64,000 nt of DNA from Nitrospirota bacterium (lineage in GTDB: Bacteria > Nitrospirota > UBA9217): the NCBI GenBank assembly GCA_963790205.1, contig CAWBNQ010000001.1, positions 224,001-288,000 of the forward strand. Reading direction: 5' to 3'. The notes beneath the pieces are model-generated. The model worked only from the letters and a program-made list of their open reading frames with translations, made no database searches and was not told the origin of the DNA. The position numbers and the translations under genes are program-made. Below are positions 35,697-59,412 of the stretch, piece by piece (positions within the stretch are counted from its first letter, which is position 1; every line of letters begins with the position of its first letter).

Positions 35697-36623
35697 TTAT
35701 ATTCCGGAATGAACGATAATCACCGGAATTGCGGCGTTTAAGATTGTTTCCCGGGCCGTGCTTCCGAAAAAGGCATTGAGTAAGGCGTTCCTGCCGTGAG
35801 TCCCCATGATCACCAACGAATAGCCGTCGTTGCTTTCCTCGTACACCGCGCTGGAGGATCGTCTCGCCTTGTCCTCGACTTTGTATTCACACGGCACGCC
35901 GTATTTCTGAAAAAAAAGCGCTTTCCGTTTCATGGATTCGACGGCAGCTTCGCGGATCGTGACAGTTATCTCATCGAAATTGACAGGGACCCCGGAGACC
36001 GCACTATTATCCAGAACGACACTGTAGCTGTCCCACAGACAATGAAACAGGACCACGCGCGCTTCGATGCGCTTCGCGAGAGAAAGGGCATATTGCTCGG
36101 CGGCCCGGCTGTTTTTCCCAAGATCGGTCGCAACGAGAATTCGCAGTTGCCAGGGGCCGGTGAGCTCCTGGTCTTTTTTCTGGGCCGCGGGGCCGACCAC
36201 CATAACGGGCCTTTGAGCGTGGCGCACGACTTCTTCCGCGACGCTTCCTATCCGGAAACGCTTCATTCCCTTCAGTCCCTGCGTACCCATAACGACAAAT
36301 TCCGGCGCAGGCTTTGCGCGCAGGGCCTTCAGGATCTGCTCGGGAGGGGAGCCGCCTTGTATGAGACAGCGTGCGGGGACTTGATACCGCCTGCCGGCCT
36401 CATTCAGATTTTCCCGATGCCGGGTATGCCACGCGCGAACGCGGGGTGAGTCGAACCTGTCGTGCGGGTATGCGTTCAGGTCTTCCACATAAAGGAGGTC
36501 GATCCCGGTTTTGAGTTGTTTCGCCAAAGAAGTGGCGGCGCTTCGCATTGCCTGCGAGCGCTCTTTGCCGGAGTCGGTCTGATTTTCAATGTCGTCAGCA
36601 ACTAAAATCGAACGTTGCGGCAT
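35697..36623 (-). CDS. Tandem universal stress protein
   Basis: VVMGTQG...GSVAEEVVR and ILVATD...IMGTHGR...FGSTARET: two USP domains. Confidence 0.88.
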   Translation of the reverse strand: MPQRSILVADDIENQTDSGKERSQAMRSAATSLAKQLKTGIDLLYVEDLNAYPHDRFDSPRVRAWHTRHRENLNEAGRRYQVPARCLIQGGSPPEQILKALRAKPAPEFVVMGTQGLKGMKRFRIGSVAEEVVRHAQRPVMVVGPAAQKKDQELTGPWQLRILVATDLGKNSRAAEQYALSLAKRIEARVVLFHCLWDSYSVVLDNSAVSGVPVNFDEITVTIREAAVESMKRKALFFQKYGVPCEYKVEDKARRSSSAVYEESNDGYSLVIMGTHGRNALLNAFFGSTARETILNAAIPVIIVHSGI

Positions 36624-36780
36624 ATTCCATTCTCCCTGCGAGGTATCGCTGTTGCTTTACTTTCTAGAAGATATCACGTCAACGATGGTTTATCAAGGAC
36701 GAACACGCCGATTTTGCGATCAAAGCATGTTGACGTTACGTTCCTGGTTGCATATGACAAGGTCGATGAGCGGGCCGTTC

Positions 36781-36999
36781 GCGAACGGCCGAACACGATC
36801 GGGATCGATCTCGCGCCCGACAGGGAACACCGTCCCCCTCCTGCACCGCACTTATCGTCTACCGTGAAATGCCGCATGCAGCCAGGGGCACGCCCTCCGG
36901 GGAATTCAGAAGAAGAGAAAAGGTCTTTAAGAATTATGAAAAGACGATGGCATGGAAAGGCGGGAAGGCATGAGCACAGGATATCTCTAGAAATTGGAA
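36781..36999 (+). pseudogene. Decayed duplicate of the 3' end of the SprT-like gene (9837-10083)
   Basis: Colinear blocks GCGAACGG.CGAACACGATC, GCAC..ATCGTCTA..TGAAATGC, ATTATGAAAAG.CGATGGC.TGG.AAGGCGG.AA.GCATGAGCACAGG; frameshifts and an internal deletion. Confidence 0.85.
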
Positions 37000-37065
37000 G
37001 GCGACTATTTCCAGTTGTACTGCGCATTCCCCTTTTGTTTTGCGCCTGACGGAAAGGACAAAATG

Positions 37066-37104
37066 AAAAGAGGCTTGGATACAATCCTCATCTAAGCCTC
37101 TTTT
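37066..37104. terminator. Bidirectional-type intrinsic terminator after giant gene
   Basis: AAAAGAGGCTTGGAT...ATCTAAGCCTCTTTT. Confidence 0.7.
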
Positions 37105-37121
37105 CTCGCCTCATCAGCAGA

Positions 37122-40100
37122 TCAGTTGATAACTCTTATTACGTCCACGCCGTCAAAGGCCGTCGGTCCGACCTTACCCGTCACATGGACAGGAACGCTG
37201 TCTCCGAGCGGCAGGACGCCAATCACGTCGCTCCGCTTGAACTTTACCATGAGGTCCGGGATGCCGTCCTTGTCCTGGTCGCCGATCGCGTAGGGCCAGG
37301 TTTCTGCAGGGATGGTCCCTTCGAGCCGGATCGACGAGACATCGATGTCCTTGACGTTGTAGCCCGCCGGCAGCTCGATATAGACCACGACCCAGGTCCC
37401 GTTGCTCGATTTATTGAGCGTATCGGGGTCGAAGTCGATCGTGGCGGTGATGCCCGTTTGCGGCAGATGGACCGTGAAGCTCGCCATGCTCGTCCAGGGG
37501 CCGTAGAGCTGGCCGTCATAAGCCCGGCAGCGCCACTGATAAATGGTGTTGTCAGTAAGCGCTGTGGCCGGGGTTGCCGATGTGATGCCCGAGCTGCCGC
37601 CGGGCACGCCTATTATGGAAGTAACGAGCGCTCCGCCGCTGTATATCTCGAAATCATACGTAAGGCTCGGGCTGTCCGGATCGGTCGCGTTCACGACGGC
37701 AAGCGTGGGCGTAAGCGTCGCGACGCTGCTGCCGTCGGCAGGAGCCGAGAGCGACGGGGCGCTGGGCGCATCGTCGGCAGTATTCACCATGAAGGAGGCC
37801 TGCGGCATCCAGGGGCCGTAGAGCTTGCCGTCAAAGGCGCGTGTTCTCCAGTAGTAAGTCTGGTTTTCGGTTAGAACCACTGGCACGGTCCAGGATGTGA
37901 TCTGGCTGGTCTCAGCCACACCGGTTGTACTCGTAACGAGCGTTATGAGCCCGGAGTCGCTGTAGACCTCGAAGTCATACGTAAGAGCGTCCCGGTCAGG
38001 GTCCGTGGAATCATACACCGACAAGGTCGGCGTGAACACGGTCACCGCGCCGGCATTGGACGGGTTGGCAAGCGTCGGCGCGGTCGGCGGCTCGTTTACG
38101 GCGTTTGCAAAGAAGCCGACAACAGTTGACCACGGACTGTCCGCCTGCCCGTCGGAGGCCTTCACCCGGACGTAGTACTGCGTGTCTTCGGTAAGGCCTG
38201 TAACGCGCCAGGTAGTGGCGCTCTGGCCCTGGGCCACTGAACCGGAGCGGATGATATTGGGTGAATCGAAGGTCGGGACCGTATCGACCTCGAAGAAATA
38301 CGCGATGACACTTGAATCAGGGTCCGTGCTGTTCGCGACCGCGATGTCCGTATCGAGGGCAGCTATGGTCGCATTGTTCGCCGGGGCCGTGATAACCGGC
38401 ATTGTCGGCGGCTCGTTCGTGGTGTTGACGAAGAATGAAGCCGTTGTTGACCACAGGCCGGTCATGAACCAGTCGTCGGCCTGCGCCCTCCAGTAGTACC
38501 AGTTGTTCTCTACCAGATTTGCCGGGACCTGCCACGATGTGGTCCCCTGGCTGGACATAGTCGATGTCTGGCTGCTCATAACTCCTGTTGTCGTGGCAAT
38601 GATCTGGGTAAATCCGGGATCAAGGGCCACGTCGAAGTTGTAGGTAAGGCTCGGGCTGTCCGGGTCCGTGGCGTTGGTCACGGTAAGGACCGGCGTATAG
38701 GTCGCGACCTGGCTGCCGTCTGTTGGGCTGCTGATCAGGGGCGCCGTGGGAGGATCGTCCACGGTGTTGACCCGGAAGGAGGCGGGCGCCATCCAGGGGC
38801 CGTAGAGCCAGTTGTCATAAGCCCGGCTGCGCCAGTAGTAAGTCTGGTTTTCCGTGAGGGTCAGGGGAACAGTCCATGACGTTGTTCCCGTGCCCTGGGT
38901 GAGCATATCTGATGACGCCGTGAGTTGCGTCAGCGCGCTGTCGCTGTAGAGCTCGAACTGGTAGGTAAGCTTGTCGTCGTTCGGGTCCGAAGCGTTGTTA
39001 ACCGTCAATGTCGGCGTGAAGGTAAGAACGTCGGAGCCGTTAACAGGTCCGACGAGCGACGGGCTTGACGGCGCGCCTTCGATCCGGAAGTAGGCGCCGC
39101 TAAGGGTTTCCGTCAGACTGCCGACGGTTGCCTGGAGGATAACGAGGTAGTCCTTGGCCGTGTACCTGGTGGTGTCGATCAGGATGGTGTTTGCCGTTGA
39201 TCCTCCCATGGCAAGGGTCGCCTGGTTCGGGAAGGTGTCGTACACGGTCTGGTCGGAGACATTTACCGTGAGCACGGTAAGTGTTACGTTTTGAAGGTCG
39301 ATATTGCCCACGTTCGTGACGTTGTAGGACACGGTCGCGGTCTGCCCGGACAGAAGCTCCTGCGCGCCCACGGAGATCTGGCCCCGAAGGACCGATGCGG
39401 GGTTTATGACGTTGGTTATCGTAAGAGTCTGCGTTCCCGTGGCGATGATCGTCCCGGTTAAATCTCGTACAATGAGTGTGACGGGATAGGTCCCTGAGGG
39501 ATAGGTCCCTATGTTCCAGTAGTCCTTAAAGTTGTACGTTGCGCCGGGCATGAGGCTGGTGATGGCCTTGGTGTCCGTAAAGAGCGTTGTCGCCGGGCTC
39601 GTTACTATATTCGACCCGATGGTAAGCGTTGCCGAGAGGTTCTGGAGAATGGTGTTTCTGCTCTGGCTCGTTATGACTGCGCTCAGCGCTGCCGTGTCAT
39701 TGGGGTTATAGGATATCTTGTCCGTCGTAACCCCTGCGCTCATCCGGGTATCGGATGCGATCGTGAACCCCGTCACCTTCCTTGAGATCACCCGGCCTGA
39801 CTCGCTGAACTCGGCCATCACCGTGTACTGGCCGGCAAGAGTTGCTGCCGTGTTCCAGGTCCGGGTAAGCATAACGCTGCTGTTCGCGTTGACTGTGACC
39901 GGATCGGCCGTTGATATCGTGGCAATGAGATTTCCAGCGCTATCTTTCACGTACAGGCCAAGGGTAAGGTATCGGGTGTTTCCGGTGTTGTCCGATACGG
40001 TTAAGGTCTCCGTCACGGTGTCGTCGGCATTGTAAGTGGCTTTGTCGAGCGTGAGTGATGCGGCCAACCCTGCCGATTGAATGAAAATGGCCTGAGAAGC

Positions 40101-43100
40101 CATATTATTGTCTTCCCTGCTCTCGATGATCATGCTCGCGGGGTCTACGACGACGTAGACCTGCTGCTGCCCTGCCCATCCCGTGGTGTCGAGGCTCGCC
40201 TGGACCATAGCGGTACTTCCCAAGGCCATGACCGGGTAAATGGTCTGGCTCGAAACGAGCATGCCTCCGGAAGATGGGTTGCCGAGGTAGATATTCACCA
40301 GGACATTGCTCGTTGACGCACCCTGGTTATGGATGGTGGCGGAAACCGAGAGCGCGTTCCCTTCGGAAGGAGACGCGGGCGTAAGCTGGATGTCGGAAGC
40401 GGAGACGGCAAGGTCGGGGAGCACGGCCTGCTGGACCTGGAACATGACGGAAGCGCTGTTGTTCGCCTTGCTCGATTCGACGATGGCATTTGCAGGGTCA
40501 ACGACGATGTAGAGCACATTCGTTCCCACTTTGCCGAGGGTGTCGTAACTGAAGGTGACCGGGGCTGTGCCTCCGGCGCTTATCGAAGCGATAACCTGGT
40601 CAGTTCCGACCCGGACTCCGCCTGTTGCGGGATTGCCGTTGTAGAGCCGAACAACGACGTTTGATGCCGAGAGGCCGCCGATGTTGCTTATTGTCGCCGT
40701 GACCGGAATGGGGGTCCCCTCGTAATAGGGACCTGCCGGCAACGCGATGTTCTGAGGACTGATCGTGAGGTCCGGGTACTCGACGACGATGGTAACGTCT
40801 GCTGCGGCCTGGTTGTCGTCCTTGCGGCACTCGGAGATGGCGTTCGCCGCGTCCACCACAGCATAAATATGATGGAGCCCCAGGCCCCCGCCGGCCCAGT
40901 TGTAGACCACATCCTGGAAGTCTCCGGGATTAAGGGCCTTTGTGGTTGATGCGGTGCCGATGGCTGTTCCGCCAGCCGCCGGATCGCCGTCGTAGTACGT
41001 AACCGTCACGGTCGGTGTGGAAGCGATCGCTCCGCCGTTCCCTACCCTGACAGCGATATTTGTCGACAATCCTGCCTGCTCAATGCGCAGGTCCGAGGCT
41101 GTGAGATTCGGGGTGAGATAGGGGTTCGGATTAGGTCCGATTGATGCCTGAGTTTGGTACGTATTATTAAGAAGCCAGCTCGGGGCCTCATGCTGCGGGA
41201 TCGAGCCGTCGTCGTTTACATTTGTGACATGATAAGAAGGCTGATTGTAAATACGGCGTCCGTTGGACCATGGATGGTTCGGATCTACCGAGTGATACAC
41301 GCGCATCGCTTCGAGATTGTTTTTATCGTCATGGCCTGTCACAACTAATTCGACCTGTCCATCGCCGTCCACGTCAGCTACAGTCACGTTTTGCGGGAAG
41401 ACATTATCATCTCCGCCAAAAGGTTCCTGATACAAAACTGTGCCGTCTTTCCCGGAAAGGATCGTGAAGTAGCCTCCGCTGTTTATCATCACCTTCGGGA
41501 TGCCGTCTCCGTCCAGATCGAAAACCGTCGGCGCCGCACTATAGGCAGAGCTAGTATAAACCGGAATCGTAAGTGTATTCTTGAGTTGACCGTCCTTATT
41601 CAAGACTAAAATCTTATTCTCGCTCCTGATCCCTATTTCCGGCTTGCCGTCCCCGTCGAAGTCTGCCACAATTGGCGGACTTGCGCCAAAGGAACCAATT
41701 GAGTTATTTCCAAGGAGCTGTCTTACGGATACCGGACCCCATTTGATATTACCCGTGTTGTCGAGAAGATAGACCACAGCATCACCTGAAACGTATCCTT
41801 CCAAAACAATTTCCGGGTAGGGATCGCCGTCGAAATTAGCGATAGCGACGGCCCCATCGGGAAGCGAAGATTTCCACCAGATACGATTGCAATTGTTGTC
41901 ATACGCTGCATTGCCGGCCACGATCTCCTGCTGACCGTCGAGGTTCAGATCAACAACTGCTGCAAAATCATACAATACCCCTCCGTATACGTTGAAGTAA
42001 CCCTTCCCACTGCCATTATAAGAGTTATAGCCGGCGCATCGGACGGAGCCGTCCGCGTTGATGACCGTCGGTCCCGAGATGATTTCCTTGTTCCCGTCTC
42101 CCTTGAGGTCGGCGATGGCGGTAACGTTCCTCTGAGAAATAGTGGGGATAAAATAGCCGCTGGAGCTTGAGGGATGGGCTGTTTTCCATGCCTGGACTTG
42201 CGCACTATCGTCCCACTTCATGGTCCAGTCGTTGTTGTAGACGACCAGCCCATAACCATAGGTGTTATTGTTAGTTTCAAAGATGATCTCCGGTTTCCCG
42301 TCACCGTCGAAGTCTCCGGACGAAACATAGGAGAGTATATCCGCGTGGTGGTTTATATCGTAGATTGAAGCATAGTTCTCCCCGGTATCGCCCTTGAAGG
42401 CCAATATCTTTGCCGAGTACACCAGTAGAGGGTTCATCACAGGGAGAACGATATCCGGAACATCATTTTGATCTATCTTCCCGTCGCCGTTCGTGTCCCG
42501 CAAATGCATGATTGTAGGCTGAGGTAACAACAGCCAACCGGCGCTAGGTATTCCCCACTTCCACTTGACCGTTGCTTGAATGGGGTTCGTTGGGACGACC
42601 TGACAGTCCTTGCAGGACACGAGATGATTGTTGTCCTCGTTCTGTTCGAGAATGGCGTCGCCGGAATCGACGAACGCGTAGAGCGGCGAGTGGAGGAACG
42701 TGACCGCGCCGGAGAGCGGCACGTCGACCGCACCAACTCCTTCGGGCCAGAGCGCCGCGGGATTCGATCCTGTCCCGAAACTCATGAGACCCGTGCCTAA
42801 GAGGTTGTCCACCCCCGCGGTGTATTTCCCGTCTCCGTCCTTGTCCTCGAAGATAGAGACGTTAAAGGACGTGGTTATCTTGTCGTCGCCTGTGTTCTGG
42901 AAGGTGACGTGGGCGGTGCCAGAGATTGCGAGCGATTGGGGATCGGTTGTCGTGTTCGTGAGGTCGATCGAAACAGGAACAAGGTCAGGTCCCAGGGTCT
43001 CCCCCGGCGATAAGATGGTGAGCGAGCGGATGGCCGTGTTGTTGTCTTCGTACATTTCCACGACCACATTCTCGGGGTCGGCCACGGCGTAGAACCGGTA

Positions 43101-45233
43101 TACCTGGGGCGAGGCGATGAAAGAGTAAGTTACCGTGATGCTGCCGTCGCCTGCGATGTCGCTTATCGGGAATGTCTGGAGCAGAACTCCGCCTGTACTG
43201 GGATCGCCGTTGTAGATCGCCAGGTTGAATGCACCCGTGTCCTTGATGCCGGTATTATGGGCGGTTATGGTAAGCGCCACGCTGTCACCGGATACGGGAT
43301 GCGGAGGGTTGAAGACCAGGTCTGTGGCGGAAATTTCTATGTCCACCATGTCGGTCATGATCCTGACTGACGCGCGGTTGTTGTTCTCGTTCGATTCGAT
43401 GATCTGGTTGGCCCGGTCGAGGATGACGTAGACGTCGTGGATGCCGCTGGGTATGGCCCAGCTTGCGGTTATAAGCTGCGATCCTCCGGCGACAAGGGAG
43501 ATCGTCTGGCTGTTTATGAGCGTGCCGCCCGATTCGGGCGCGCCGTCGAAGATCTCGACGGTGAAGTTATTTGCCGCATCAGCGCCGATGTTATGGACAT
43601 TTGCGGCGATCTGGACCGTGTCGCCTGCATGGGGCCGGGAGGGATTTAGAATAATGTCTGTGGGTGAAATTGTCAGATCAGCCTGGGTGAGCGTGCCGCC
43701 CACGTTCACCGTGACCGAGCCGGTGTTGTTGGTCTTGGATATCTCGGTGATTACGTTCCCTGAGTCGGCAACGAGGTAGAGCGTATGGGAGCCGTTCGTC
43801 GTAAGGGTGACGCCGATGGTCCCGGTGCGCATATCGCTGCCGCTCACGCCGGAGATATCGGCGGTCTGGAGGAGAACGCCGTTATTTGCCGGGTCGCCGT
43901 CATACAAGGCCACGGTAAATGCACCTGCAGGGCTCTCGCCTATATTTCTTATGGTGTAGTTGAGCGTGAACGCAGTTCCCGCGGTTGGTACATAGGTTGA
44001 GGGTATAAGGTCTGAGGAATAGACGGCAAGGTCCGGGCCGGTTGCCACCCAGAGCCGGGCTGAGGCTTTGTTGTCGAGCTTGTTGGTTTCCGAGATGAGG
44101 TTATCAGGGTCAGCGACGACGAAGATGGTGTCAGCGCCGGTGCCGCTGAAACTCGTTGTGATTGACGCTTGTGCCGATGAGCCAAGGGCTATGAGCGGGA
44201 TTATCTGGTCCGTGCCGATCTGAGTGCCGCCGACTGCGGGATCGCCGAGGTAGAAGCGGACCATCACATTTGATGCGTTGTCGTAACCCGTATTGCTTAT
44301 TACGGCGCTGATGGTCGTCGTGGCCCCGGAAAGGGGCATGGAATTCGAGAAGGTGATTCCGGAGGTTGAGACAGCAAGGTTCGGTTTTGCTTCTGCAAGG
44401 GCCTGGAGCGCCAGGGCGGTTGAATAGGGATCGTCGTTCCAGGAACCGTCAGCGAGTTGGGATGTGGTGAGGTAATTGATGCCGTTCTGGATGGTCTGGA
44501 CGCTCCCCTGCCCGCTTTCGATCATGGACATAAGAGATAGAGCCGTGTCGTAAACAGTTGAAGGTGAGTTCCCGAACCCGCCGTCGGTGTTTTGATAGGC
44601 GAGCAGGAACGCCGATGCTTGATTGATGGAAGTCTGATTGATGAAGACGGAATTGTAGGCAGACAGCGCTCGGAGGACGAATGATGTGACGTAGGTGTTG
44701 CTGGCATCGCCTGGAGTGAACCCCCATCCACCGTCTGTGTTCTGGTTCGTTGTGAGGTAGCTCAATGACTGGCCGATGAGCGTAGTGTCGGAGTAATTTA
44801 TGGCAGAAAGGGCCTGGAGGGCCAAGGCGGTGTCGAGGATTTCGTTGACGTAATCTGAATCCATTCCCCATCCGCCTTCCGTTCCCCGATAGAGAAGCAG
44901 GCTGGCCAGATCGGCTGAGGTGTCCTGTCCGGCACGTTTGAGAGCGATGATCTGGCGTGCGAGATAGTCAGTAGGCGAAACGATCTGGCCGCTGAGCCAC
45001 TGGAAGCCTGTCGAATATGCTTGGCTTGAAGGATCAAGAGCGTAGGCGGCATCTAGAGCCGCAGCCGTGGAGTAATAATCGGTGGTCACCATTTGCGGCC
45101 AATTACCGCTAGCGGTCTGAGAAGAGTAGAGCCAGGAGAGGCCGGATGAAATCTGTGGCGATTGAGCAAAAGCACGAGAATATGGAGACGATAACAAGAT
45201 AATTAAAGCGATGATCAACGCTTTTTTTTGCAT
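37122..45233 (-). CDS. Giant secreted multidomain protein: prenyltransferase-like alpha/alpha toroid, about 8 CARDB, FG-GAP/VCBS beta-propeller, MG-like domains, 5 FN3-like repeats
   Basis: Signal peptide; QNTDGGWG/QNTDGGFG/QLADGSW repeats; PDL...DPxNxIxExxxxNN CARDB units; DFDGDGKPEI repeats; DKxxYNxxD motifs; five TPTL...DPD...YYWRxRAxD...GPW units. Confidence 0.9.
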   Translation of the reverse strand: MQKKALIIALIILLSSPYSRAFAQSPQISSGLSWLYSSQTASGNWPQMVTTDYYSTAAALDAAYALDPSSQAYSTGFQWLSGQIVSPTDYLARQIIALKRAGQDTSADLASLLLYRGTEGGWGMDSDYVNEILDTALALQALSAINYSDTTLIGQSLSYLTTNQNTDGGWGFTPGDASNTYVTSFVLRALSAYNSVFINQTSINQASAFLLAYQNTDGGFGNSPSTVYDTALSLMSMIESGQGSVQTIQNGINYLTTSQLADGSWNDDPYSTALALQALAEAKPNLAVSTSGITFSNSMPLSGATTTISAVISNTGYDNASNVMVRFYLGDPAVGGTQIGTDQIIPLIALGSSAQASITTSFSGTGADTIFVVADPDNLISETNKLDNKASARLWVATGPDLAVYSSDLIPSTYVPTAGTAFTLNYTIRNIGESPAGAFTVALYDGDPANNGVLLQTADISGVSGSDMRTGTIGVTLTTNGSHTLYLVADSGNVITEISKTNNTGSVTVNVGGTLTQADLTISPTDIILNPSRPHAGDTVQIAANVHNIGADAANNFTVEIFDGAPESGGTLINSQTISLVAGGSQLITASWAIPSGIHDVYVILDRANQIIESNENNNRASVRIMTDMVDIEISATDLVFNPPHPVSGDSVALTITAHNTGIKDTGAFNLAIYNGDPSTGGVLLQTFPISDIAGDGSITVTYSFIASPQVYRFYAVADPENVVVEMYEDNNTAIRSLTILSPGETLGPDLVPVSIDLTNTTTDPQSLAISGTAHVTFQNTGDDKITTSFNVSIFEDKDGDGKYTAGVDNLLGTGLMSFGTGSNPAALWPEGVGAVDVPLSGAVTFLHSPLYAFVDSGDAILEQNEDNNHLVSCKDCQVVPTNPIQATVKWKWGIPSAGWLLLPQPTIMHLRDTNGDGKIDQNDVPDIVLPVMNPLLVYSAKILAFKGDTGENYASIYDINHHADILSYVSSGDFDGDGKPEIIFETNNNTYGYGLVVYNNDWTMKWDDSAQVQAWKTAHPSSSSGYFIPTISQRNVTAIADLKGDGNKEIISGPTVINADGSVRCAGYNSYNGSGKGYFNVYGGVLYDFAAVVDLNLDGQQEIVAGNAAYDNNCNRIWWKSSLPDGAVAIANFDGDPYPEIVLEGYVSGDAVVYLLDNTGNIKWGPVSVRQLLGNNSIGSFGASPPIVADFDGDGKPEIGIRSENKILVLNKDGQLKNTLTIPVYTSSAYSAAPTVFDLDGDGIPKVMINSGGYFTILSGKDGTVLYQEPFGGDDNVFPQNVTVADVDGDGQVELVVTGHDDKNNLEAMRVYHSVDPNHPWSNGRRIYNQPSYHVTNVNDDGSIPQHEAPSWLLNNTYQTQASIGPNPNPYLTPNLTASDLRIEQAGLSTNIAVRVGNGGAIASTPTVTVTYYDGDPAAGGTAIGTASTTKALNPGDFQDVVYNWAGGGLGLHHIYAVVDAANAISECRKDDNQAAADVTIVVEYPDLTISPQNIALPAGPYYEGTPIPVTATISNIGGLSASNVVVRLYNGNPATGGVRVGTDQVIASISAGGTAPVTFSYDTLGKVGTNVLYIVVDPANAIVESSKANNSASVMFQVQQAVLPDLAVSASDIQLTPASPSEGNALSVSATIHNQGASTSNVLVNIYLGNPSSGGMLVSSQTIYPVMALGSTAMVQASLDTTGWAGQQQVYVVVDPASMIIESREDNNMASQAIFIQSAGLAASLTLDKATYNADDTVTETLTVSDNTGNTRYLTLGLYVKDSAGNLIATISTADPVTVNANSSVMLTRTWNTAATLAGQYTVMAEFSESGRVISRKVTGFTIASDTRMSAGVTTDKISYNPNDTAALSAVITSQSRNTILQNLSATLTIGSNIVTSPATTLFTDTKAITSLMPGATYNFKDYWNIGTYPSGTYPVTLIVRDLTGTIIATGTQTLTITNVINPASVLRGQISVGAQELLSGQTATVSYNVTNVGNIDLQNVTLTVLTVNVSDQTVYDTFPNQATLAMGGSTANTILIDTTRYTAKDYLVILQATVGSLTETLSGAYFRIEGAPSSPSLVGPVNGSDVLTFTPTLTVNNASDPNDDKLTYQFELYSDSALTQLTASSDMLTQGTGTTSWTVPLTLTENQTYYWRSRAYDNWLYGPWMAPASFRVNTVDDPPTAPLISSPTDGSQVATYTPVLTVTNATDPDSPSLTYNFDVALDPGFTQIIATTTGVMSSQTSTMSSQGTTSWQVPANLVENNWYYWRAQADDWFMTGLWSTTASFFVNTTNEPPTMPVITAPANNATIAALDTDIAVANSTDPDSSVIAYFFEVDTVPTFDSPNIIRSGSVAQGQSATTWRVTGLTEDTQYYVRVKASDGQADSPWSTVVGFFANAVNEPPTAPTLANPSNAGAVTVFTPTLSVYDSTDPDRDALTYDFEVYSDSGLITLVTSTTGVAETSQITSWTVPVVLTENQTYYWRTRAFDGKLYGPWMPQASFMVNTADDAPSAPSLSAPADGSSVATLTPTLAVVNATDPDSPSLTYDFEIYSGGALVTSIIGVPGGSSGITSATPATALTDNTIYQWRCRAYDGQLYGPWTSMASFTVHLPQTGITATIDFDPDTLNKSSNGTWVVVYIELPAGYNVKDIDVSSIRLEGTIPAETWPYAIGDQDKDGIPDLMVKFKRSDVIGVLPLGDSVPVHVTGKVGPTAFDGVDVIRVIN

Positions 45234-45472
45234 AGTTCCTCCGAACGCGACAATAATATAACGTCTATATAAATATGTCCTTGAATCCGCCTATGCGGTC
45301 GCAATAAACAAGATACAATCGTTGTCTTCTTAATTCTCTCGAAAGCGGAGAAGTATGTTCGTGTGATTCAGCAACTTGCATGCTGCAATATATTTATCTG
45401 GTCCAGCGCGAATGTTGACGGGATGTTTTTACTTAAAAAATATTTTACTTTGCTACACTTTGTCCTCTTGTC

Positions 45473-46366
45473 CTATTGCCCTACCAAATTGAACGTCTCC
45501 TCAGTCCTGTTCCATTCAACCTGATATTTATCCCAAGGCGCGACAGGGTATTTTGCTTTAAGCGCGTCATTCATCTGCATAAACATTTCAAAACCCTTTT
45601 GAATCTTCTCGCCAAACCTCCGCCCTTCCCACGAACCTCCAATAATTATCATCCTCAGACAGTCTTTATTGAATATCAGTCTGGCATTAAAATGCTGAAC
45701 GTCTTCAAGTTTTTTCTTAAGAACTGCATCAATCTCAGGGCAGCCAGTCACTGGGATTTCATCTTTATCGCCCTCACATTTTAACGCGACATCGATAGCA
45801 TATGGCCCTTTGATGAGGGAAAATAGTTCCACTTGACTTTCTTGGCCACCTGGCCCTCCCTTTCGGCCACCAAACATGTAGGCTTGAAATTTTTCCCAAC
45901 TCGTCTGATTGCTGCGCGGAGTCCCCGAAGCAATAGAAGCCTCCTCTCGTTTGGGCAAAGCCATATCAGGTGATGCCTCTCCAGGGGAATACGATAAGAA
46001 TGGCGAAAGGATGAGAGCAGCAACATGAATGTCATCTAACCACCCGTAAGCAAAACGATATTTTCCATAATAACGCACACTTATCTTAGTTCTTTTTTTT
46101 ATGAAACGCACCCCCAACTCATATGCGAATTCGGTAAAGTCTTTTTTTGCAAAGGTCGCCTTTCGCCAAAGTATCCAACTAATAAAGAGGACCAAAATTG
46201 AAATGGCCTCGCTTACCATCAAATCTATTTCGGAGTGCCGATGAAAACGATAGATATTCTTAATAAATGCGATTAGGAGTATCATCGTCATTGTCGATGC
46301 AAAAAACAAAACGTACCACAAGACTACAAGATAAGAAGGGCGATTGTATTTTTTTTTAAGCAGCAT
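45473..46366 (-). CDS. Membrane protein (two N-terminal TM helices plus soluble domain); candidate immunity/accessory protein
   Basis: AT-rich ORF overlapping the upstream stop by 11 bp; hydrophobic segments near aa 12-35 and 50-66. Confidence 0.65.
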   Translation of the reverse strand: MLLKKKYNRPSYLVVLWYVLFFASTMTMILLIAFIKNIYRFHRHSEIDLMVSEAISILVLFISWILWRKATFAKKDFTEFAYELGVRFIKKRTKISVRYYGKYRFAYGWLDDIHVAALILSPFLSYSPGEASPDMALPKREEASIASGTPRSNQTSWEKFQAYMFGGRKGGPGGQESQVELFSLIKGPYAIDVALKCEGDKDEIPVTGCPEIDAVLKKKLEDVQHFNARLIFNKDCLRMIIIGGSWEGRRFGEKIQKGFEMFMQMNDALKAKYPVAPWDKYQVEWNRTEETFNLVGQ

Positions 46367-49300
46367 AAGAATACCTCCAGGATGACTTTTTCACGGCAAA
46401 GTACTTTTCTCGAGATGTGCGCGGGCCATATGCATATTGAATCAGGGCCAGCAACAGCATTTCTACGAGCGTTGCAATTATAGCGACAAGGAGAATCCCA
46501 ACAATGGCTGCCCCAAATCCAGTTGCTGCAAACATTATGGCAGAAATATATGCCGCGGATATCACACTCATGGATAGATCAAGAACAGCGGCAGATTCCG
46601 CCTTTACTGTATTGCCCGTATTGTTATACATGTCATCGTATGTCTTCCAAGCGGATATGCTCATTGTAATATAACCGGCTATAATTGAGAACTTCGAGGC
46701 TATTCCACTGCCTAGTTTAAAGAGGAACTTAATCATGGCATCGGTAAAATCGAAGGCAAAATTTTTCAATATGTCTCCAAAAAAATTACTCAATTGATCA
46801 CCGGTTGTCGCTGTTCCACTGCCATTCAACCCTCCGGAAATTACATATGCTCCAGCGCCCGTGTCCGGATCGGTTACAATATATCCGTCACCATGCCAGT
46901 CATAATACTGTATCGACTGCCCAGGGATTGTTACGCGCTTTCCAGCAGCAATCGCGTTTTGAATATCCGACATAGTTTCCGCGGATATCCGAAGTAACGG
47001 CAATATCGTGGCGCTGTTAGTTGAGTCTATCGTATAAATCGGGATGCCTTGCTGATTGGCGATGCTAAGAATTTTTACTGCCGACACAGCCTGTCCATCT
47101 TGATGAAGCTCCTCAATTATTGTGTGTTCATACGCTGACCCGATTGTTCCGGATACGGTCATAAAGCCTTTTTCATCAGACGCATTACCTCTTAAAGAGA
47201 CCGCATTTATTGGATAGCGTTTTACATCGAGATTCGTTCCGAGAGAACTGATGCTATACGGGACGCCGTAGATATACGAGATAGTCGGTGCTAATGTCGC
47301 AAGCATCTCAGCTGGTTGTTTTGAGTATGCGACCTTCCCTGTCGCAATCATTCGGTTTGTCGTCTCTGTCTGAGTAAAATATCCAAGGTTATGCAGATTG
47401 AGAGTCTCCCCGATAATATCATCCACAGCAACGTCTTGTTGCCCTAGTAGACTCCCAGCTGCGCTGAGTTGCGCACTCCTTTGATCAAGAAGACTTTTTG
47501 ATACTTTTTGTAAGTCGAGCCCGATTGAGGCATATGTTGATGCCGATATCTTATGAGTAATGATATCTGTCGAGCCGTTAGGCACAATAAACGTCACGGA
47601 CAACTCCTGCGTCATTCCCATGCCCGTGCTGCCGCCCGTACTTACCGTTGCACCGTCGATATTGAGAACCGGTTTGAGGTTCACGAGATATGGCGGGGTG
47701 TTGTAATAGCCATAGTTCTGTAAAGTGGTCGCATCGGCCTGAGTAGCCGGCATATATGCTATGGTTATGCGCTTACCCGCAAGGTATGCTGTTGAATATG
47801 TAACATCCATTGACTGCGTCATTGACTGCGGATCGTATATTGATATCCCGACTTTATACTGAAGAGAGTCGGGCACTTCGGCATACTTCGAACCTGCGAG
47901 AACGGTTTTGTAGGGAAGACTGGCCGGAAGGATCTCAAGTTGTTGAGTGATGATATTTTTGCTCCCAATAACGTCTCCAACAGTGGGATTTTGTAAATTG
48001 TTTATATATGATTCAAGAGAGGTTTTGACTTGATCAAGTTGCGTTTGAATAAGAGTCGTATCTATCCCTGTTATCGATCCAGTGGATGTATTGGTGACTC
48101 CGCTGTTTATCAATGAGTTAGCAAACGAGGAAGGATCAAAGCCTGTAATTTGTTTTACGTCAAGGCCTGATTTGTAAGTATATTGCTTAAAACTTGCATC
48201 GAGCGGAATCCAGGTATTTCCCTGCCGTTGCACCGCTCCCCGCGAAGGGATGTAATCTATCCAAGCTTCAACCCATACATGTTCCATCTGTGCCGCGTAG
48301 ATTGTTCCGCCTGATCTTACGCCGGTGACCGGAATCCCGCTATTGGCGATATATTTTAATGCTGCACTCTGGTCTGTGAAGCCGCCCACCCAATTCATAA
48401 CCTTATCGATAGGGACTTCAATAGTTCCGTAAACATAATGGGCATAAATGTTCGAGGCCCTAAGAAGGGCAATCAGCAAAGATGCGGTGTCAAAATCATT
48501 GCACTGTTTGGACTGAAAACACGCTTCTGCGCCCTGGATGCTACCGTAAGTGGGTGCATATTCGATGTTATTCCGAACCCAATTATAGATACTTACCGGA
48601 TTGTAGTTAAGTTGTGCAGCAAGCGCCTGGATGTCTTGAGTGAACTGAATTTCGGGGGTTTCAGATAGATCGTCGGCTGTTGGCTGGACCACGGTCGTGG
48701 CCGATGCCAAATTCAACGTACCGGATTCAAGATTCAAAACAGACTGCGGACGAAAATCGTTTACCGCGGGGGGAACAGAGGTCTCGGAGATGGGCAATGC
48801 GGGCATTTCAGGTTTAGAATCAGATGATAAAAGACCGGTCAATGGCCCGTTGGATGCGACGAGGATGGGCTTGTGCTCAATTGCTGCTCCCGACTTAAAG
48901 ACTATGGAACCTACCGGTCCTGAAATCTGTGTGGCCAAGAGATTAGTCATTAAACGGCTATCGGCGACTTTCTTTTTGCCTTGAGTCTTCTGCTTCAGAA
49001 AATCGCGCTGGAACTCCTCGGAAGTTGTCCTCGGCGCTCTTGCCTTGGCTTTCACCCTTCTGTTCGGTAAGTTGTTCGGATCGAGAGGGACGTGCTTTTT
49101 GGCAGGCTTTACCTTTTCAAGATGCAGCCGCGTTGTTTCGATCCTGGCCTTTAGGTCTGACGCGGTTTTTGCTTTGTCGATGTCATCGATCTCGGATTTG
49201 AGCTGAGTGAGGTTCTTCTCGTAATTCTTGACGAACGCCATATGCCTGTCGAGGATGACCTGCGGGAGCTTGGCGTCTTTGAGCTTCTTCTCCGTGGCGC

Positions 49301-49640
49301 TGAACTCGGCCCTGAGGTCTATATCGATCTTTTCAATCTCCGCTTTCTTCGCCTTTATTCCTGCAACCTCTGCGGCTACATCCTCGCCTCTCCCTGCTTT
49401 CTCTCCGGCCTTCGTGACACCCGCGCGAATCCCTTCCAGCGCCTTCTCGAACCGCTCCGACGCCGTTTGTATGGGCGTATTGCGATACGCCCCTGCGTGC
49501 CCCTTGTCGCTTGTTCCTTGGCCCTGCGGCGTTGCCGCAAAGGCAACGGCCTGCCATACCGGGCCGAACGTCCAGATAAAGAAAAACAGCACGACTGCCG
49601 AGATAAGTCTTAAAACCCGGTAGAAGGTCTTCACGCGCAT
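46356..49640 (-). CDS. Large exported transglutaminase-like domain protein with hydrophobic C-terminal tail
   Basis: Signal/TM N-terminus; IYNWVRNNIEY, NDFDTASLLIALLRASNI, EHVWVEAW, WIPLDAS (transglutaminase-like core); DPDTGAGAYVISGGLNG then about 150 aa hydrophobic tail. Confidence 0.85.
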   Translation of the reverse strand: MRVKTFYRVLRLISAVVLFFFIWTFGPVWQAVAFAATPQGQGTSDKGHAGAYRNTPIQTASERFEKALEGIRAGVTKAGEKAGRGEDVAAEVAGIKAKKAEIEKIDIDLRAEFSATEKKLKDAKLPQVILDRHMAFVKNYEKNLTQLKSEIDDIDKAKTASDLKARIETTRLHLEKVKPAKKHVPLDPNNLPNRRVKAKARAPRTTSEEFQRDFLKQKTQGKKKVADSRLMTNLLATQISGPVGSIVFKSGAAIEHKPILVASNGPLTGLLSSDSKPEMPALPISETSVPPAVNDFRPQSVLNLESGTLNLASATTVVQPTADDLSETPEIQFTQDIQALAAQLNYNPVSIYNWVRNNIEYAPTYGSIQGAEACFQSKQCNDFDTASLLIALLRASNIYAHYVYGTIEVPIDKVMNWVGGFTDQSAALKYIANSGIPVTGVRSGGTIYAAQMEHVWVEAWIDYIPSRGAVQRQGNTWIPLDASFKQYTYKSGLDVKQITGFDPSSFANSLINSGVTNTSTGSITGIDTTLIQTQLDQVKTSLESYINNLQNPTVGDVIGSKNIITQQLEILPASLPYKTVLAGSKYAEVPDSLQYKVGISIYDPQSMTQSMDVTYSTAYLAGKRITIAYMPATQADATTLQNYGYYNTPPYLVNLKPVLNIDGATVSTGGSTGMGMTQELSVTFIVPNGSTDIITHKISASTYASIGLDLQKVSKSLLDQRSAQLSAAGSLLGQQDVAVDDIIGETLNLHNLGYFTQTETTNRMIATGKVAYSKQPAEMLATLAPTISYIYGVPYSISSLGTNLDVKRYPINAVSLRGNASDEKGFMTVSGTIGSAYEHTIIEELHQDGQAVSAVKILSIANQQGIPIYTIDSTNSATILPLLRISAETMSDIQNAIAAGKRVTIPGQSIQYYDWHGDGYIVTDPDTGAGAYVISGGLNGSGTATTGDQLSNFFGDILKNFAFDFTDAMIKFLFKLGSGIASKFSIIAGYITMSISAWKTYDDMYNNTGNTVKAESAAVLDLSMSVISAAYISAIMFAATGFGAAIVGILLVAIIATLVEMLLLALIQYAYGPRTSREKYFAVKKSSWRYSYAA

Positions 49641-49808
49641 GGTTGCTCTCCTTGTGCCTATTCAGTTTTAAAACGAATTCTGAAACTCAGGTGCCGCGTT
49701 AAAGCAAATGCGGGAAGTGCTGGTACTGTTCTAACCGTGAATCGTCGAACCAGTAAATATAAGGAAGGCGCTGTTTTCGGATTGAGATTGTACTTTTGAA
49801 ACAACCGG

Positions 49809-49825
49809 TGCTTTTTTTCTGCCAA
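49809..49825 (-). promoter_or_regulatory. Possible sigma-54 promoter for the transglutaminase locus
   Basis: TTGGCAGAAAAAAAGCA has GG-N10-GC spacing, about 170 bp upstream of the ATG; the -12 box is imperfect. Confidence 0.35.
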
Positions 49826-49869
49826 CTGTAATACTTTAGAACCTGAATGTCAATCGGGGAAACCCTGAA

Positions 49870-51264
49870 TGTCCTCCCAAAGTGATAATGTCCTATTCTA
49901 AGCTACAATGCCCAACCGTACCGGGAGGGCAAGATGGCGGAAGAGGACAAGATCATAATGAGTCAAAAGGAAGTGAACCGGCTTCACGTTATTCGGCAGG
50001 CGATAGAAAAAGCGATAACTCAGGATCAGGCAGCAAAAATACTCGGATTAACGGATCGGCAGGTAAGAAGAATTGCCAGAAGCGTCCGATTGGAGGGAGA
50101 GGCCGGCATTTGCCACAAGTCCCGAGGGAAGAGGTCGCATAATCGGATTGGCGACAAGATAAAGGACAAGGCCGTCACGCTCTGCCGGGACACATACAAG
50201 AAATTCGGTCCCACCCATGCCAGCGAGAAGCTTGTAACGTTTCACAAGATCAAGGTCAGCGACGAGACGCTCCGGGGATGGTTTCAAGAGGAGCATATCC
50301 CCTACAAGAGTCGCAAGAAGAGACCACACCGTCAGTGGCGCGAACGAAAGGCCCACCGGGGTGAGATGATCCAGATGGACGGGTCCCATCACGACTGGTT
50401 CGAGGGCCGCGGCCCCTGGTGTGTTCTCATGGGTTACGTGGATGATGCCACCGGCACCGTGCATGCCCGTTTTTATGAGTATGAGGGAACACTGCCGGCC
50501 ATGGATGGTTTCAAGCGTTATATCAGGCTCTACGGGCTGCCCCAGAGCGTCTATCTGGACAGGCACTCAACGTACAAGGCCACGGCAAAGCAGAGCATCG
50601 AAGAGGAGCTAAACGACATTCGACCGATGAGCCATTTCGAGAAGAGCCTGGCAGAGCTTGGCGTCGAGGTCATCCATGCTTATTCCCCCCAGGCCAAAGG
50701 ACGCATCGAGCGGCTGTTCGGAACCTTTCAGGATCGGGTCGTCAACGAGATGCGGCTGGCCGGGGTGACGAATAGAGGGGAAGGCAACACGTTCCTGGAT
50801 GGCTATCTCCCCGAGTTCAACAGGAAGTACGCCAAGGAAGCGGCACAGAAAGCTGACTTTCATCGACCCGTCGCGAATAAGAGGGCGCTTGACACGATTC
50901 TCTCGATCAAGACCGACCGAGCATTACGGAACGACTTTACGATCGCCCACAACAAGAAGCTTTACCAGATCAAGAGCAATATCCGAGCTAAGAAGGTGAC
51001 GGTGGAAGAGAGAACCGACGGAACCATGCGCATAATCCATAACGGCCAGAGTCTGAAGTATCAAGAAATCATCGCACGACCCATACAGGGAAAGAAGTCG
51101 GCCGAGAAACCAAAACCCCTAAGATCATGGAAGCCGTCTGCATCACATCCTTGGAAGTCCCCAGCAAGGGCAATGGTCAAAGCAAGAACAGAGATTCAGG
51201 CAACATCATAAAACCGGACATTTTTGCTTTGGTAAGAATAGGACATTTTAACTTTGGGTTGACA
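49870..51264 (+). mobile_element. IS1202-family (ISNCY/IS481-related) insertion sequence with 16-bp flanking direct repeats
   Basis: 30-bp terminal IRs at 49870-49899 and 51235-51264 (26/30 match, TGTC...GACA); TCGGGGAAACCCTGAA at 49854-49869 and 51265-51280. Confidence 0.92.
49934..51211 (+). CDS. DDE transposase (IS1202/ISNCY type)
   Basis: N-terminal HTH, GEMIQMDGSHHDWFE, VDDATG, YLDRHS, SPQAKGRIERLFGTFQDR. Confidence 0.95.
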   Translation: MAEEDKIIMSQKEVNRLHVIRQAIEKAITQDQAAKILGLTDRQVRRIARSVRLEGEAGICHKSRGKRSHNRIGDKIKDKAVTLCRDTYKKFGPTHASEKLVTFHKIKVSDETLRGWFQEEHIPYKSRKKRPHRQWRERKAHRGEMIQMDGSHHDWFEGRGPWCVLMGYVDDATGTVHARFYEYEGTLPAMDGFKRYIRLYGLPQSVYLDRHSTYKATAKQSIEEELNDIRPMSHFEKSLAELGVEVIHAYSPQAKGRIERLFGTFQDRVVNEMRLAGVTNRGEGNTFLDGYLPEFNRKYAKEAAQKADFHRPVANKRALDTILSIKTDRALRNDFTIAHNKKLYQIKSNIRAKKVTVEERTDGTMRIIHNGQSLKYQEIIARPIQGKKSAEKPKPLRSWKPSASHPWKSPARAMVKARTEIQATS

Positions 51265-51580
51265 TCGGGGAAACCCTGAAATTCAGCTTCGAAAAACCTT
51301 AGACTTTTTTGGAGGAATCCCAAAAACCCAAAATAAGCTGTTTCGGTTCCGCGGCTCTTGCCGTGACTGAGGTCCGCGCAGTGATGGTTTTGGATGTTTC
51401 GTGCTCTTTTCCGAAATCGGTGAAGGGCCAGCCTTATTCCTCATCCCCGAATGGGGCAAAACTGGAAGCACGAGATGAAGATTTTTGACTTATTCGATTA
51501 AGAATACGACACGAAGTATACAAGTTCGGAAGGATGAAACTCTAACGGACTTCAGGAAGAACTTCTTGCTCTTCAAAAAA

Positions 51581-52363
51581 TTATTCGACTACGGTTTTGT
51601 GTGCCGTAAAAAAGAGCCTCTTAAAGGGATAGAGAATCCGCCCATCACCTTGAGGGAGGTACTGTTCTTTACATTCAGTCAAAACTGCCTGCTCGAATTC
51701 CTCTCTATTCTCATCAGCCGGCAAGCTTTCGAGAAACGGTTTCATCGCGGTGCTCTTATACCACGCAACGAGGTCCCGGTGGGATTTCAAAATATGATAG
51801 TAGGTCGTTTCCCACAGGACAATGTCCTGCGTTAACGAAGCGAGCTCATTATAATAATATCCGGCAGGATGATACGTTATCAGCCCGTCACAGCCTGCTG
51901 TGAAGGCGCTCCATTTGCTGCGTCGGGCAACGTTCACTATGATCTTGTACAAAGGTGATTCATGATTAGCAGGCACCTGGACCGCCAATATTCCGTCTTC
52001 CCTTACAATTTGGAACAAGCGCGGGATCAACCGGTGGTGGTCCGGGATCCAATGTATCGCCGCGTTGGAAAAAACAATGTCATACTGGCGATCCGTCGTT
52101 AACGTTGAGGCATCTCCGAGCATCCATGTCCGGCCCGGATGATCCAGGCGGGCCCGTTCTATCATCTTTTCGGATTTATCGAGGCCGACGATATCGGCAT
52201 GGGGCCATCTGGTGCGCAAAATTTGCGTGCTGTTTCCCGGGCCGCAGCCTATATCGATGATGGTTCTGGGGTCCTCCAGGGGAATCCGCGCAACGAGGTC
52301 GATGGAGGGCCGAGTTCTTTCATGCTCGAACTGCAGATATTGTTGAGGGTCCCATTCGCGCAC
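51581..52363 (-). CDS. tam: trans-aconitate 2-methyltransferase-like SAM methyltransferase
   Basis: WDPQQYLQFEHERTRPSIDL, DIGCGPGNST, FSNAAIHW, YPFKRLF; start uncertain (GTG with RBS chosen). Confidence 0.85.
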   Translation of the reverse strand: MREWDPQQYLQFEHERTRPSIDLVARIPLEDPRTIIDIGCGPGNSTQILRTRWPHADIVGLDKSEKMIERARLDHPGRTWMLGDASTLTTDRQYDIVFSNAAIHWIPDHHRLIPRLFQIVREDGILAVQVPANHESPLYKIIVNVARRSKWSAFTAGCDGLITYHPAGYYYNELASLTQDIVLWETTYYHILKSHRDLVAWYKSTAMKPFLESLPADENREEFEQAVLTECKEQYLPQGDGRILYPFKRLFFTAHKTVVE

Positions 52364-52550
52364 TTCGATCTCCCCATCATTCGTCCTGACATTCATGACA
52401 CCAGAAAACACAGCTACTATATTAGTATAGCGCGGACGTTGGCCGCAGCCAAAGAGGAAAGCCTTTGGCACTGATAAAAGCCGATAAAAAATATGATCAG
52501 AGCGAATCAGTCAATGTCGTACTCGCATTTTTTCATACCAAAATCAGCTT

Positions 52551-52725
52551 TGATGATCTCGTAAAAAGTCTAAATTTATTGCAGAGGCTTGCCCTGCACT
52601 CGCGCTGAACACTCGTTAACGCTGGGCACAGGCGGAGACACGGAAAAATGCACTTTGAAATAGTAAGGATTTTTTCTGTGCCCTCTGCGTTCCCCGCGGG
52701 AAAAAGGTTTCTTACGATTTTGTCA
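52551..52725. repeat. MITE-like palindromic intergenic element
   Basis: Ends TGATGATCTCGTAAAAAGTC and GGTTTCTTACGATTTTGTCA are imperfect IRs; internal IR GGGCACAG/CTGTGCCC; GCTT flanks both sides. Confidence 0.5.
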
Positions 52726-52904
52726 GCTTTTATCCGTGCCTAAAAACCTTTTTATGTTTGAGAAGATTCTCGCGCCATGCCAAACTCTGCAAGATAATAC
52801 CATAAAAGGGAATGATGCACACAGTATTTCGTGGCAGCGAGATCGCCTTGAACACCGGTCAATATTGAATTAGTCCTCTTGCTGTGTTATAGTAATAATT
52901 CGTT

Positions 52905-57195: not shown

Positions 57196-57202
57196 CGGAC
57201 CG

Positions 57203-59331: not shown

Positions 59332-59412
59332 ACGATTCACGGAATAATAATCAACTTTTTGCCAAAAGGCAACACAAAAGAAGCGGCGCCGTTACCATCG
59401 GGAGCAGAAAAA

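Follow-up and report, generated by a model that had tools for sequence, protein, structure and literature searches.

Catalytically inactive transglutaminase domains have been noted in RHS polymorphic toxins, where they directly follow the signal peptide and always precede the RHS region, and an anchoring role has been guessed for them (Zhang et al. 2012, PMC3482391; this and the other accessioned papers below are cited from parts of their texts). We describe a locus where such a domain occurs in a protein with a Sec-type signal peptide and no RHS match by Pfam, alongside a partner of a different kind. It lies in a 64,000-nucleotide stretch of a Nitrospirota genome (assembly GCA_963790205.1, contig CAWBNQ010000001.1, positions 224,001 to 288,000 of the forward strand), hereafter the window, and comprises three genes (lengths in amino acids, aa):

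46356..49640, minus strand: gene 1, 1094 aa, presumed polymorphic toxin made up of a trunk and a variable tip
45473..46366, minus strand: gene 2, 297 aa, two transmembrane (TM) segments plus a soluble domain, presumed cognate immunity protein
37122..45233, minus strand: gene 3, 2703 aa, partner protein with signal peptide

We think it probable, from sequence comparison and structure modeling, that genes 1–3 form a two-protein antibacterial polymorphic toxin system with its immunity protein, in which an alpha/alpha toroid of the gene 3 protein grips the trunk of the gene 1 protein and holds or aims it. Those features of a polymorphic toxin system that can be assessed by computation are present: an export signal, a conserved trunk, tips that include toxin families, a co-varying next gene and, among relatives, orphan cassettes. 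Gene 1 is laid out as follows:

49536..49640, minus strand: Sec-type signal peptide, aa 1–35, A35 nearly invariant, from reading of the sequence
49005..49472, minus strand: helical bundle, aa 57–212
48195..48644, minus strand: transglutaminase-like core, aa 333–482, with Asp382 at the catalytic Cys position and His454 and Asp481 kept
48231..48254, minus strand: first predicted toroid-docking loop, aa 463–470
47907..47945, minus strand: second predicted docking loop, aa 566–578, with L575, P576 and Y577 95–97% conserved
46821..48170, minus strand: conserved alpha/beta trunk with no named family, ending in a Gly-rich junction, aa 491–940
46359..46820, minus strand: variable tip, aa 941–1094, with amphipathic helices, a hydrophobic hairpin (aa 1011–1070) and a basic end

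A sequence-only reading of this DNA had proposed export signals on both large proteins and, for gene 1, a coiled-coil leader, a transglutaminase-like core and a Gly-rich junction before a very different tail. Signal-like N-termini were found on the products of genes 1 and 3, judged by sequence and hydropathy with no dedicated predictor, and the layout was borne out, with a helical N-terminal region and the junction near aa 940. Identity to gene 1 per 25-residue block across 119 aligned sequences was 0.24–0.79 for aa 326–950, then dropped to 0.03–0.12, a fall in conservation from about 0.5 to about 0.05.

The tips are extremely diverse. From the best 120 homologs 107 tips were cut, falling into 53 clusters; the cluster of the gene 1 tip had 10 members, and at least one hydrophobic segment was present in 101 of the 107. 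Tips and neighbors were surveyed at 97 loci from genomes and metagenomes (L-numbers below denote collected loci). Clear Pfam scores identified NlpC/P60 (E to 2e-19), M15 (5e-9) and M23 (1e-15) tips. Weaker matches, near or below the Pfam cutoff, were to SLT, CHAP, phospholipase A2, Tox-ART-HYD1 and HNH, and many further tips are hydrophobic and helical, without a family. Longer relatives carry RHS plus HNH, or phosphodiesterase or Ig-like domains. RHS-bearing trunk relatives are L019, L020 and L139, the last with RHS, then HNH above cutoff, then DUF4265; most trunk members are without RHS. Truncated trunk-tip-immunity cassettes occur at L003, L017, L018 and L134, none in the window. The sequence-only reading had treated the transglutaminase-fold part as toxin-like; that assignment falls with the loss of the catalytic Cys (see below), and the tip is the presumed toxin part of gene 1.

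The gene after the trunk-tip gene changes with the tip. The loci yielded 98 tips, of which 3 were short, 4 were duplicates and 3 lacked a next gene; removal of these 10 left 88 tip/next-gene pairs. TM segments were called from hydropathy alone and the loci share ancestry, so the figures are patterns rather than independent tests. The next gene was multi-TM for 46 of 51 tips with at least two hydrophobic segments, vs 0 of 25 tips with none. For 21 of those 25, the next protein has only an N-terminal hydrophobic segment; the 12 one-segment tips were mixed. Next genes formed 63 clusters, and 24 of 33 similar next-gene pairs also shared similar tips, vs 70 of 3828 pairs overall. GC content of the next gene was below that of the trunk in 78 of 88. 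Judged by these patterns, the changing tip with its tip-matched next gene is the grammar of polymorphic toxin-immunity loci, as had been proposed from the single locus. DUF4424-YARHG proteins, candidate periplasmic immunity proteins, were noted after the NlpC/P60 tips of L011, L017 and L018.

Gene 2 overlaps gene 1 by 11 nt, and has a GC content of 42% vs 48% for gene 1 and 57% for gene 3. It had been described as a small, AT-rich, overlapping membrane open reading frame (ORF); it is AT-rich and overlapping and has two hydrophobic segments, but is not very small, having in addition a soluble C-terminal domain of ∼200 aa. Its product matched nothing in Pfam and gave no usable ESM Atlas match, and neither gene 1 nor gene 2 had a match in NCBIfam. 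Relatives of gene 2 number 33 at the 50% cluster level, some of them spurious; gene 2 was found in 2 of 401 genomes (its own and a second genome, G197; the same two among 41 relatives) and in 1 of 100 loci (L092). In G197 the gene 2 relative follows a tip 68% identical to that of gene 1, with the same overlap, and in L092 it follows a tip matching the cluster hidden Markov model at E 5e-18. The sequence of L029 stops at the tip. Gene 2 is likely the cognate immunity protein that protects the producer.

The genome holds three copies of gene 1, in the window and on contigs C3 and C8 (C3, C5, C8, C10 and C11 are contigs of the same genome, G000), no two with the same tip or the same next gene. 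The C3 paralog (L021, C3:881013-885225) is 44% identical up to aa 938. Housekeeping genes surround it, two small ORFs follow it and a toroid gene is absent; its partner may be supplied in trans. The closest paralog, on C8 (L022, C8:17843-22629), is broken by a 393-aa transposase-like ORF, an insertion element. The L022 tip consists of a hydrophobic stretch and then an 'HYT' segment resembling ADP-ribosyltransferase (ART), and its next gene has LVIVD repeats.

The constant companion of the trunk is the toroid that begins gene 3. Gene 3 is composed as follows:

44379..45164, minus strand: alpha/alpha toroid, aa 24–285, lacking both the cyclase DxDD and the thioester motif, and predicted to be the trunk's socket
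43011..44384, minus strand: four CARDB repeats, aa 284–741
41109..42566, minus strand: FG-GAP beta-propeller region, six DxDGDG-type motifs, ∼aa 890–1375
40077..41111, minus strand: three CARDB repeats, aa 1375–1719
37455..39038, minus strand: five FN3-like repeats, aa 2066–2593

This is the composition first read from the sequence: Pfam returned toroid, CARDB, FG-GAP and FN3-like families, and self-comparison gave 7 CARDB and 5 FN3-like repeats. DxDD and CGEQ were each absent from all 90 toroids (0/90). At the 97 loci, the trunk end was reached in 82 and a toroid was matched in 49, rising to 27 of 30 when at least 5 kb was available downstream (not de-duplicated). In a sample of 401 genomes from one phylum, searched with a toroid model that includes some CARDB columns, 52 had the trunk and 42 the toroid: 40 had both, 12 only the trunk and 2 only the toroid. 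The toroid thus occurred in 40/52 trunk-positive vs 2/349 trunk-negative genomes. Tandem arrays repeat trunk-immunity-toroid units and often end in one giant version of the partner. L135, L136, L139 and L140, RHS-bearing or other long relatives, also have toroid partners; at L019 and L020 no toroid was found within the DNA available at the locus. We noted that L135, L136 and L140 form a distant subfamily of 1,300–2,300 aa with C-terminal phosphodiesterase or Ig-like regions and a Cys one position after the canonical site, paired with proteins of 3,000–6,000 aa whose toroid starts from ∼aa 370.

Behind the toroid the partners vary, with CARDB, carboxypeptidase-regulatory, vWA, FlgD or Big regions, and there are toroid-only versions with little else. 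Of 53 distinct toroid starts, 25 belonged to complete partner ORFs: 9 of at most 450 aa (one an 83-aa fragment), 5 of 451–1000 aa and 11 of more than 2,000 aa. By this count the invariant partner is the ∼260-aa toroid, not the whole giant. The link to a giant adhesin first drawn from the window therefore stands as to co-occurrence with gene 3 relatives and predicted contact; the giant itself is not required, and the neighbor check that had been proposed gave both the 27 of 30 long loci with a toroid and the partners that are too short, or in the case of the C3 paralog not adjoining. Matching the final 200 residues of gene 3 at 81–83% identity, an isolated fragment split over two frames lies at C5:301700-302292.

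Trunk and toroid are predicted to form a complex. Modeling of gene 1 aa 317–945 with gene 3 aa 24–285, a pair prediction suggested along with the original annotation, scored 0.86, with the best control at 0.00. Among 157 solved complexes 116 reached this mark, as did 2 among 215 mismatched pairs; the calibration holds only roughly for this complex, which was scored on its own alignments. Runs shared at least 96% of contacts, and the predicted local distance difference test (pLDDT) value of the partners was at least 91. Sequence searches turned up no solved structure related to the trunk outside the core, and it therefore seems unlikely that the predictor was recalling a similar complex. Interface residues of the trunk are more conserved than the trunk as a whole (0.71 vs 0.62).

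Comparison with the C8 copy indicates which part of the locus is exchanged. Gene 1 is 88–92% identical to that copy over aa 1–200, and 22–48% over aa 505–945; gene 3 is 31–55% identical over aa 1–200 and later mostly 77–97% (59–68% at aa 1600–1900). The exchanged block thus takes in the greater part of each docking face together with the tip and the immunity gene. A mirror test on 31 trunk-toroid pairs was rejected as evidence of co-evolution: every trunk region correlated with the toroid (rho 0.24–0.58), the highest being the N-terminal bundle, which is absent from the complex model, so shared descent explains the correlation.

The core, Pfam Transglut_core at aa 333–482 (E 2.7e-14), matches the folds of 3ISR, TglA and TgpA. 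In a gap-free profile alignment to two canonical G-x-C transglutaminase-like proteins of the genome, Asp382 falls on the Cys and Cys380 on the Gly. The catalytic-Cys column held D in 60 sequences, A in 51, S in 7 and G in 1, and Cys in 0/119, while His454 was kept in 113/119 and Asp481 in 119/119. Two residues before the canonical site, Cys380 was present in 94/119 and replaced by Gly in 25/119. Both Cys374 and Cys380 were present in 94 of the 119, neither in 19 and Cys374 alone in 6; Cys380 was never alone, which suggests a Cys374–Cys380 disulfide. As judged from these alignments the core is catalytically dead, and because the catalytic Cys is lost we read it as a scaffold.

The system might work as follows. 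Both large proteins would leave the cytoplasm via Sec and then probably reach the outside by a type II system, GspD having scored above its cutoff in the genome. VipB was not found in this 98% complete genome. A search for ShlB gave no match, and is uninformative because it gave none in any control either. The two docking loops of the trunk are predicted to insert into one face of the toroid, with the dead core as scaffold, and the CARDB, propeller and FN3-like repeats would bind a surface and position the toxin; toroid-only partners would be bare holders. The tip would then act on the target envelope, as its relatives suggest. Peptidoglycan-hydrolase and phospholipase tips would work outside the inner membrane; hydrophobic tips, including that of gene 1, would insert into the inner membrane and probably depolarize it; and a hydrophobic stretch ahead of an ART-like or RHS-HNH domain would carry the enzyme inward. 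The product of the next gene, following the pattern above, would sit where the tip acts, and tip and next gene would be exchanged together by recombination in the conserved flanks.

Other explanations fit parts of these data. The toxin-immunity relation could hold with the toroid serving as a periplasmic chaperone or secretion adaptor, the adhesin repeats being passengers and nothing being aimed. The partners of at most 450 aa with little besides a toroid, the free variation of the repeats behind it, and the tendency in arrays for each full trunk to have its own toroid would all suit such a role; the 11 partners of more than 2,000 aa, and the frequent ending of arrays in a giant, would be costly for a pure chaperone. 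We consider this account unlikely. We give still less weight to a surface structure or self-recognition tag, in which the tip would fix gene 1 to the membrane of the producer itself, gene 2 would be an assembly factor or receptor, and gene 1 would tether the giant through the toroid. The near-universal hydrophobic segment of the tips, the hairpin and basic residues of the gene 1 tip and the predicted trunk-toroid binding agree with an anchor. However, the tip position is also filled by soluble peptidoglycan hydrolases and by phospholipase, ART-like and HNH domains, followed by next genes that suit their compartment, and an anchor has no need of 53 unrelated families, orphan cassettes or AT-rich cognate genes; we find this reading improbable.

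An active enzyme seems to us very improbable. Gene 1, as a transglutaminase or a LapG-like protease, would then act on the giant adhesin by cross-linking or cleavage. The kept His454 and Asp481 would fit this, as would the presence of Cys380, two positions ahead of the canonical site, in most sequences; in a pairwise alignment with 3ISR that is weak and gapped (E 0.73), Cys380 falls on the catalytic Cys. That placement disagrees with the gap-free profile alignments, and the replacement of Cys380 by Gly in a fifth or so of sequences, together with its absence wherever Cys374 is missing, is as in a disulfide.

Several points weigh against the toxin system with a gripping, possibly aiming toroid that we favor. 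A Sec-exported 1,000-residue protein has no evident route to the periplasm or inner membrane of a target. The linkage is incomplete: no toroid was matched in 12 of the 52 genomes with the trunk, for the most part fragmented assemblies or weak hits, and 3 of the 30 long loci, as well as the C3 paralog, have no adjoining toroid. The pairing is not strictly cognate by sequence, since the toroid that follows the G197 trunk most like gene 1 is 34–52% like that of gene 3 (aa 1–200), vs 61–64% for the toroid of the neighboring unit. Besides the rough calibration of the complex score, interface residues of the toroid are less conserved than the whole toroid (0.47 vs 0.57). Context is known for only 3 of the ∼30 gene 2 relatives, and L061, with a weak relative of the gene 1 tip, is followed by a different gene. 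The gene 1 tip has no Pfam match, its hydrophobic hairpin and basic residues also look like a membrane anchor, and no processing site or protease was found.

The family is large, with at least 1,189 proteins at E 1e-10 (query aa 310–945; 7,993 scored candidates). Named relatives, one of them from the cultured Geotalea daltonii FRC-32, represent Nitrospirota, Nitrospinota, Geobacteraceae, other Deltaproteobacteria and Gammaproteobacteria. The AlphaFold2 model of gene 1 (pLDDT 82; predicted template modeling score 0.76) runs from helical bundle through disordered linker and core to an alpha/beta C-terminal trunk and a long-helix tip with the hydrophobic hairpin. A fold search with the full model matched only the transglutaminase core (3ISR at Z 11.5, root-mean-square deviation (rmsd) 4.2, 155 aligned; 9CRN at Z 9.8) and generic helical bundles. 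Foldseek with the model of aa 596–1094 gave no match at E 0.001, a search in which the beta-rich part of the trunk was barely probed, so we claim no new fold for gene 1. For aa 490–945 the best ESM Atlas match was 0.86, to unnamed clusters, and serves as a lead only. A fold search with the gene 1 tip returned generic helical bundles (three-helix matches; best Z 9.2, rmsd 3.3, 89 aligned), with no colicin or contact-dependent inhibition (CDI) chain among the matches listed. A 'DPxTG' turn before the junction resembles the RHS cleavage motif; it lies within a predicted hairpin and was not counted.

The signals around the three genes are as follows:

49825..49853, minus strand: sigma-70-like promoter match, TTGACA / 17 nt / TACAGT, common to four other loci of the same genome
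37066..37104, minus strand: terminator-like hairpin plus U-run, 3′ of gene 3, from folding against shuffles

That three co-oriented genes are closed by a strong terminator was proposed from the letters of the stretch and was confirmed: the three minus-strand ORFs are sound, and the hairpin has a z of −4.46, equaled by 0 of 200 shuffles. It was not among the matches of a pattern scan. The 239-bp gap between genes 2 and 3 contains no stable fold, and the scan gave a weak promoter-like match at 45281-45253, 5′ of gene 3; a single transcript of genes 1–3 is plausible. Likewise upheld was the claim that no type I, V or VI secretion or RHS machinery is nearby: none of these families was matched in the 18 ORFs scanned at window positions 32–64 kb (the first 32 kb was not scanned). 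Rfam had no match within 36000-53000.

An ISNCY element occupies window positions 49869-51265, with 31-nt inverted repeats and 17-bp direct repeats; a 99.6% identical copy is on C5. It lies directly 5′ of the −35 box of gene 1, splitting it from conserved upstream sequence, and may change expression of this copy. The promoter region, with a conserved box 5′ of the −35 (window 49790-49868 plus 51264-51340), heads five loci of the genome; the other four are C8:17.6k, C3:718k, C10:59.5k and C11:122.7k, of which C10 and C11 lead to RHS-type ORFs and C3 to a large repeat protein. This suggests a shared regulon of secreted or conflict genes. Farther off, at 56485-58160, a SurA-like peptidyl-prolyl isomerase region, possibly frameshifted, shows up as three short ORFs, of which two match SurA_N and the third Rotamase, adjoining an intact SurA-like gene at 59359-60351.

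By these comparisons the locus apparently represents a widespread and undescribed delivery class of polymorphic toxin. We put forward a bolder version only tentatively, and are inclined to doubt it: a new general plug-and-socket class with a toroid-tipped modular adhesin as the docking site for any trunk, free combination of tips and targeting modules, and a ∼450-residue trunk domain that is itself the means of crossing the target outer membrane, for short envelope and long RHS toxins alike in Nitrospirota, Desulfobacterota and Gammaproteobacteria. The apparent class would entail delivery without an injection machine or two-partner transporter, and dozens of unrelated membrane-active tips with cognate partners; each earlier new delivery route for polymorphic toxins opened its own field. 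It would provide the inactive transglutaminase domains reported in 2012 with a concrete partner and an interface open to testing, would assign a role to a large group of giant 'prenyltransferase-repeat/CARDB' proteins that currently carry a wrong annotation as squalene cyclases, and would give a handle on how Sec-exported toxins get to the envelope of a Gram-negative competitor.

The literature within our coverage, which omits most subscription papers, contained no description of the toroid partner, the RHS-free form or the whole composition, and only PMC3482391 was relevant. In the main text of that paper (first 300,000 of 357,715 characters) 'prenyl', 'squalene', 'toroid' and 'CARDB' are absent; its supplement may list such neighbors. 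The consulted part of PMC10318531 held nothing relevant, and in that of bioRxiv 10.1101/2021.10.19.465003 'transglutaminase' has 0 occurrences. The claim that no characterized system is alike accordingly survives for the toroid partner and the RHS-free form and fails for the inactive-transglutaminase RHS toxins, which were known. With those toxins, as described in the cited portions of PMC3482391, the gene 1 family shares Sec export, a transglutaminase domain with an incomplete triad, variable C-terminal toxin domains and, in some trunk relatives, RHS. Gene 1 differs in having ∼300 residues, including the helical bundle, between signal peptide and core, a further ∼450-aa trunk, no RHS and a toroid partner, and the family's tips are mostly envelope-directed.

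Three other secreted systems invite comparison. Streptomyces umbrella particles (UmbA/UmbB/UmbC, PMC11062931) likewise join a secreted polymorphic toxin to separate targeting proteins, and there too the link is an enzyme fold without catalytic activity, which is fused to surface-binding domains and binds a peptide segment. In its proposed way of working our locus is nearest to these particles. Genes 1–3 have no ALF repeats, trypsin-like domain or UmbB by Pfam and share no family with the particles; the system has two proteins rather than three, the hosts are diderm, and targeting by the repeats is inferred here. CDI ionophore toxins with CdiI (PMC11630599) resemble our locus in having highly polymorphic helical membrane tips and equally polymorphic immunity proteins; ours has no CdiA filament or CdiB transporter, and the tip has no sequence or specific fold match to theirs. 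The ABP systems (AbpT/AbpP/AbpI, PMC13460014) are also three-gene sets of secreted toxin, co-secreted partner and immunity, but are Gram-positive and have an active serine protease as partner, in place of a toroid without catalytic motifs. The toroid itself, gene 3 aa 24–285, shares its fold and its repeat motifs with the toroids of squalene-hopene cyclase, prenyltransferase and complement TED; it differs from them in lacking DxDD and CGEQ, in having a signal peptide and in being predicted to bind a protein loop.

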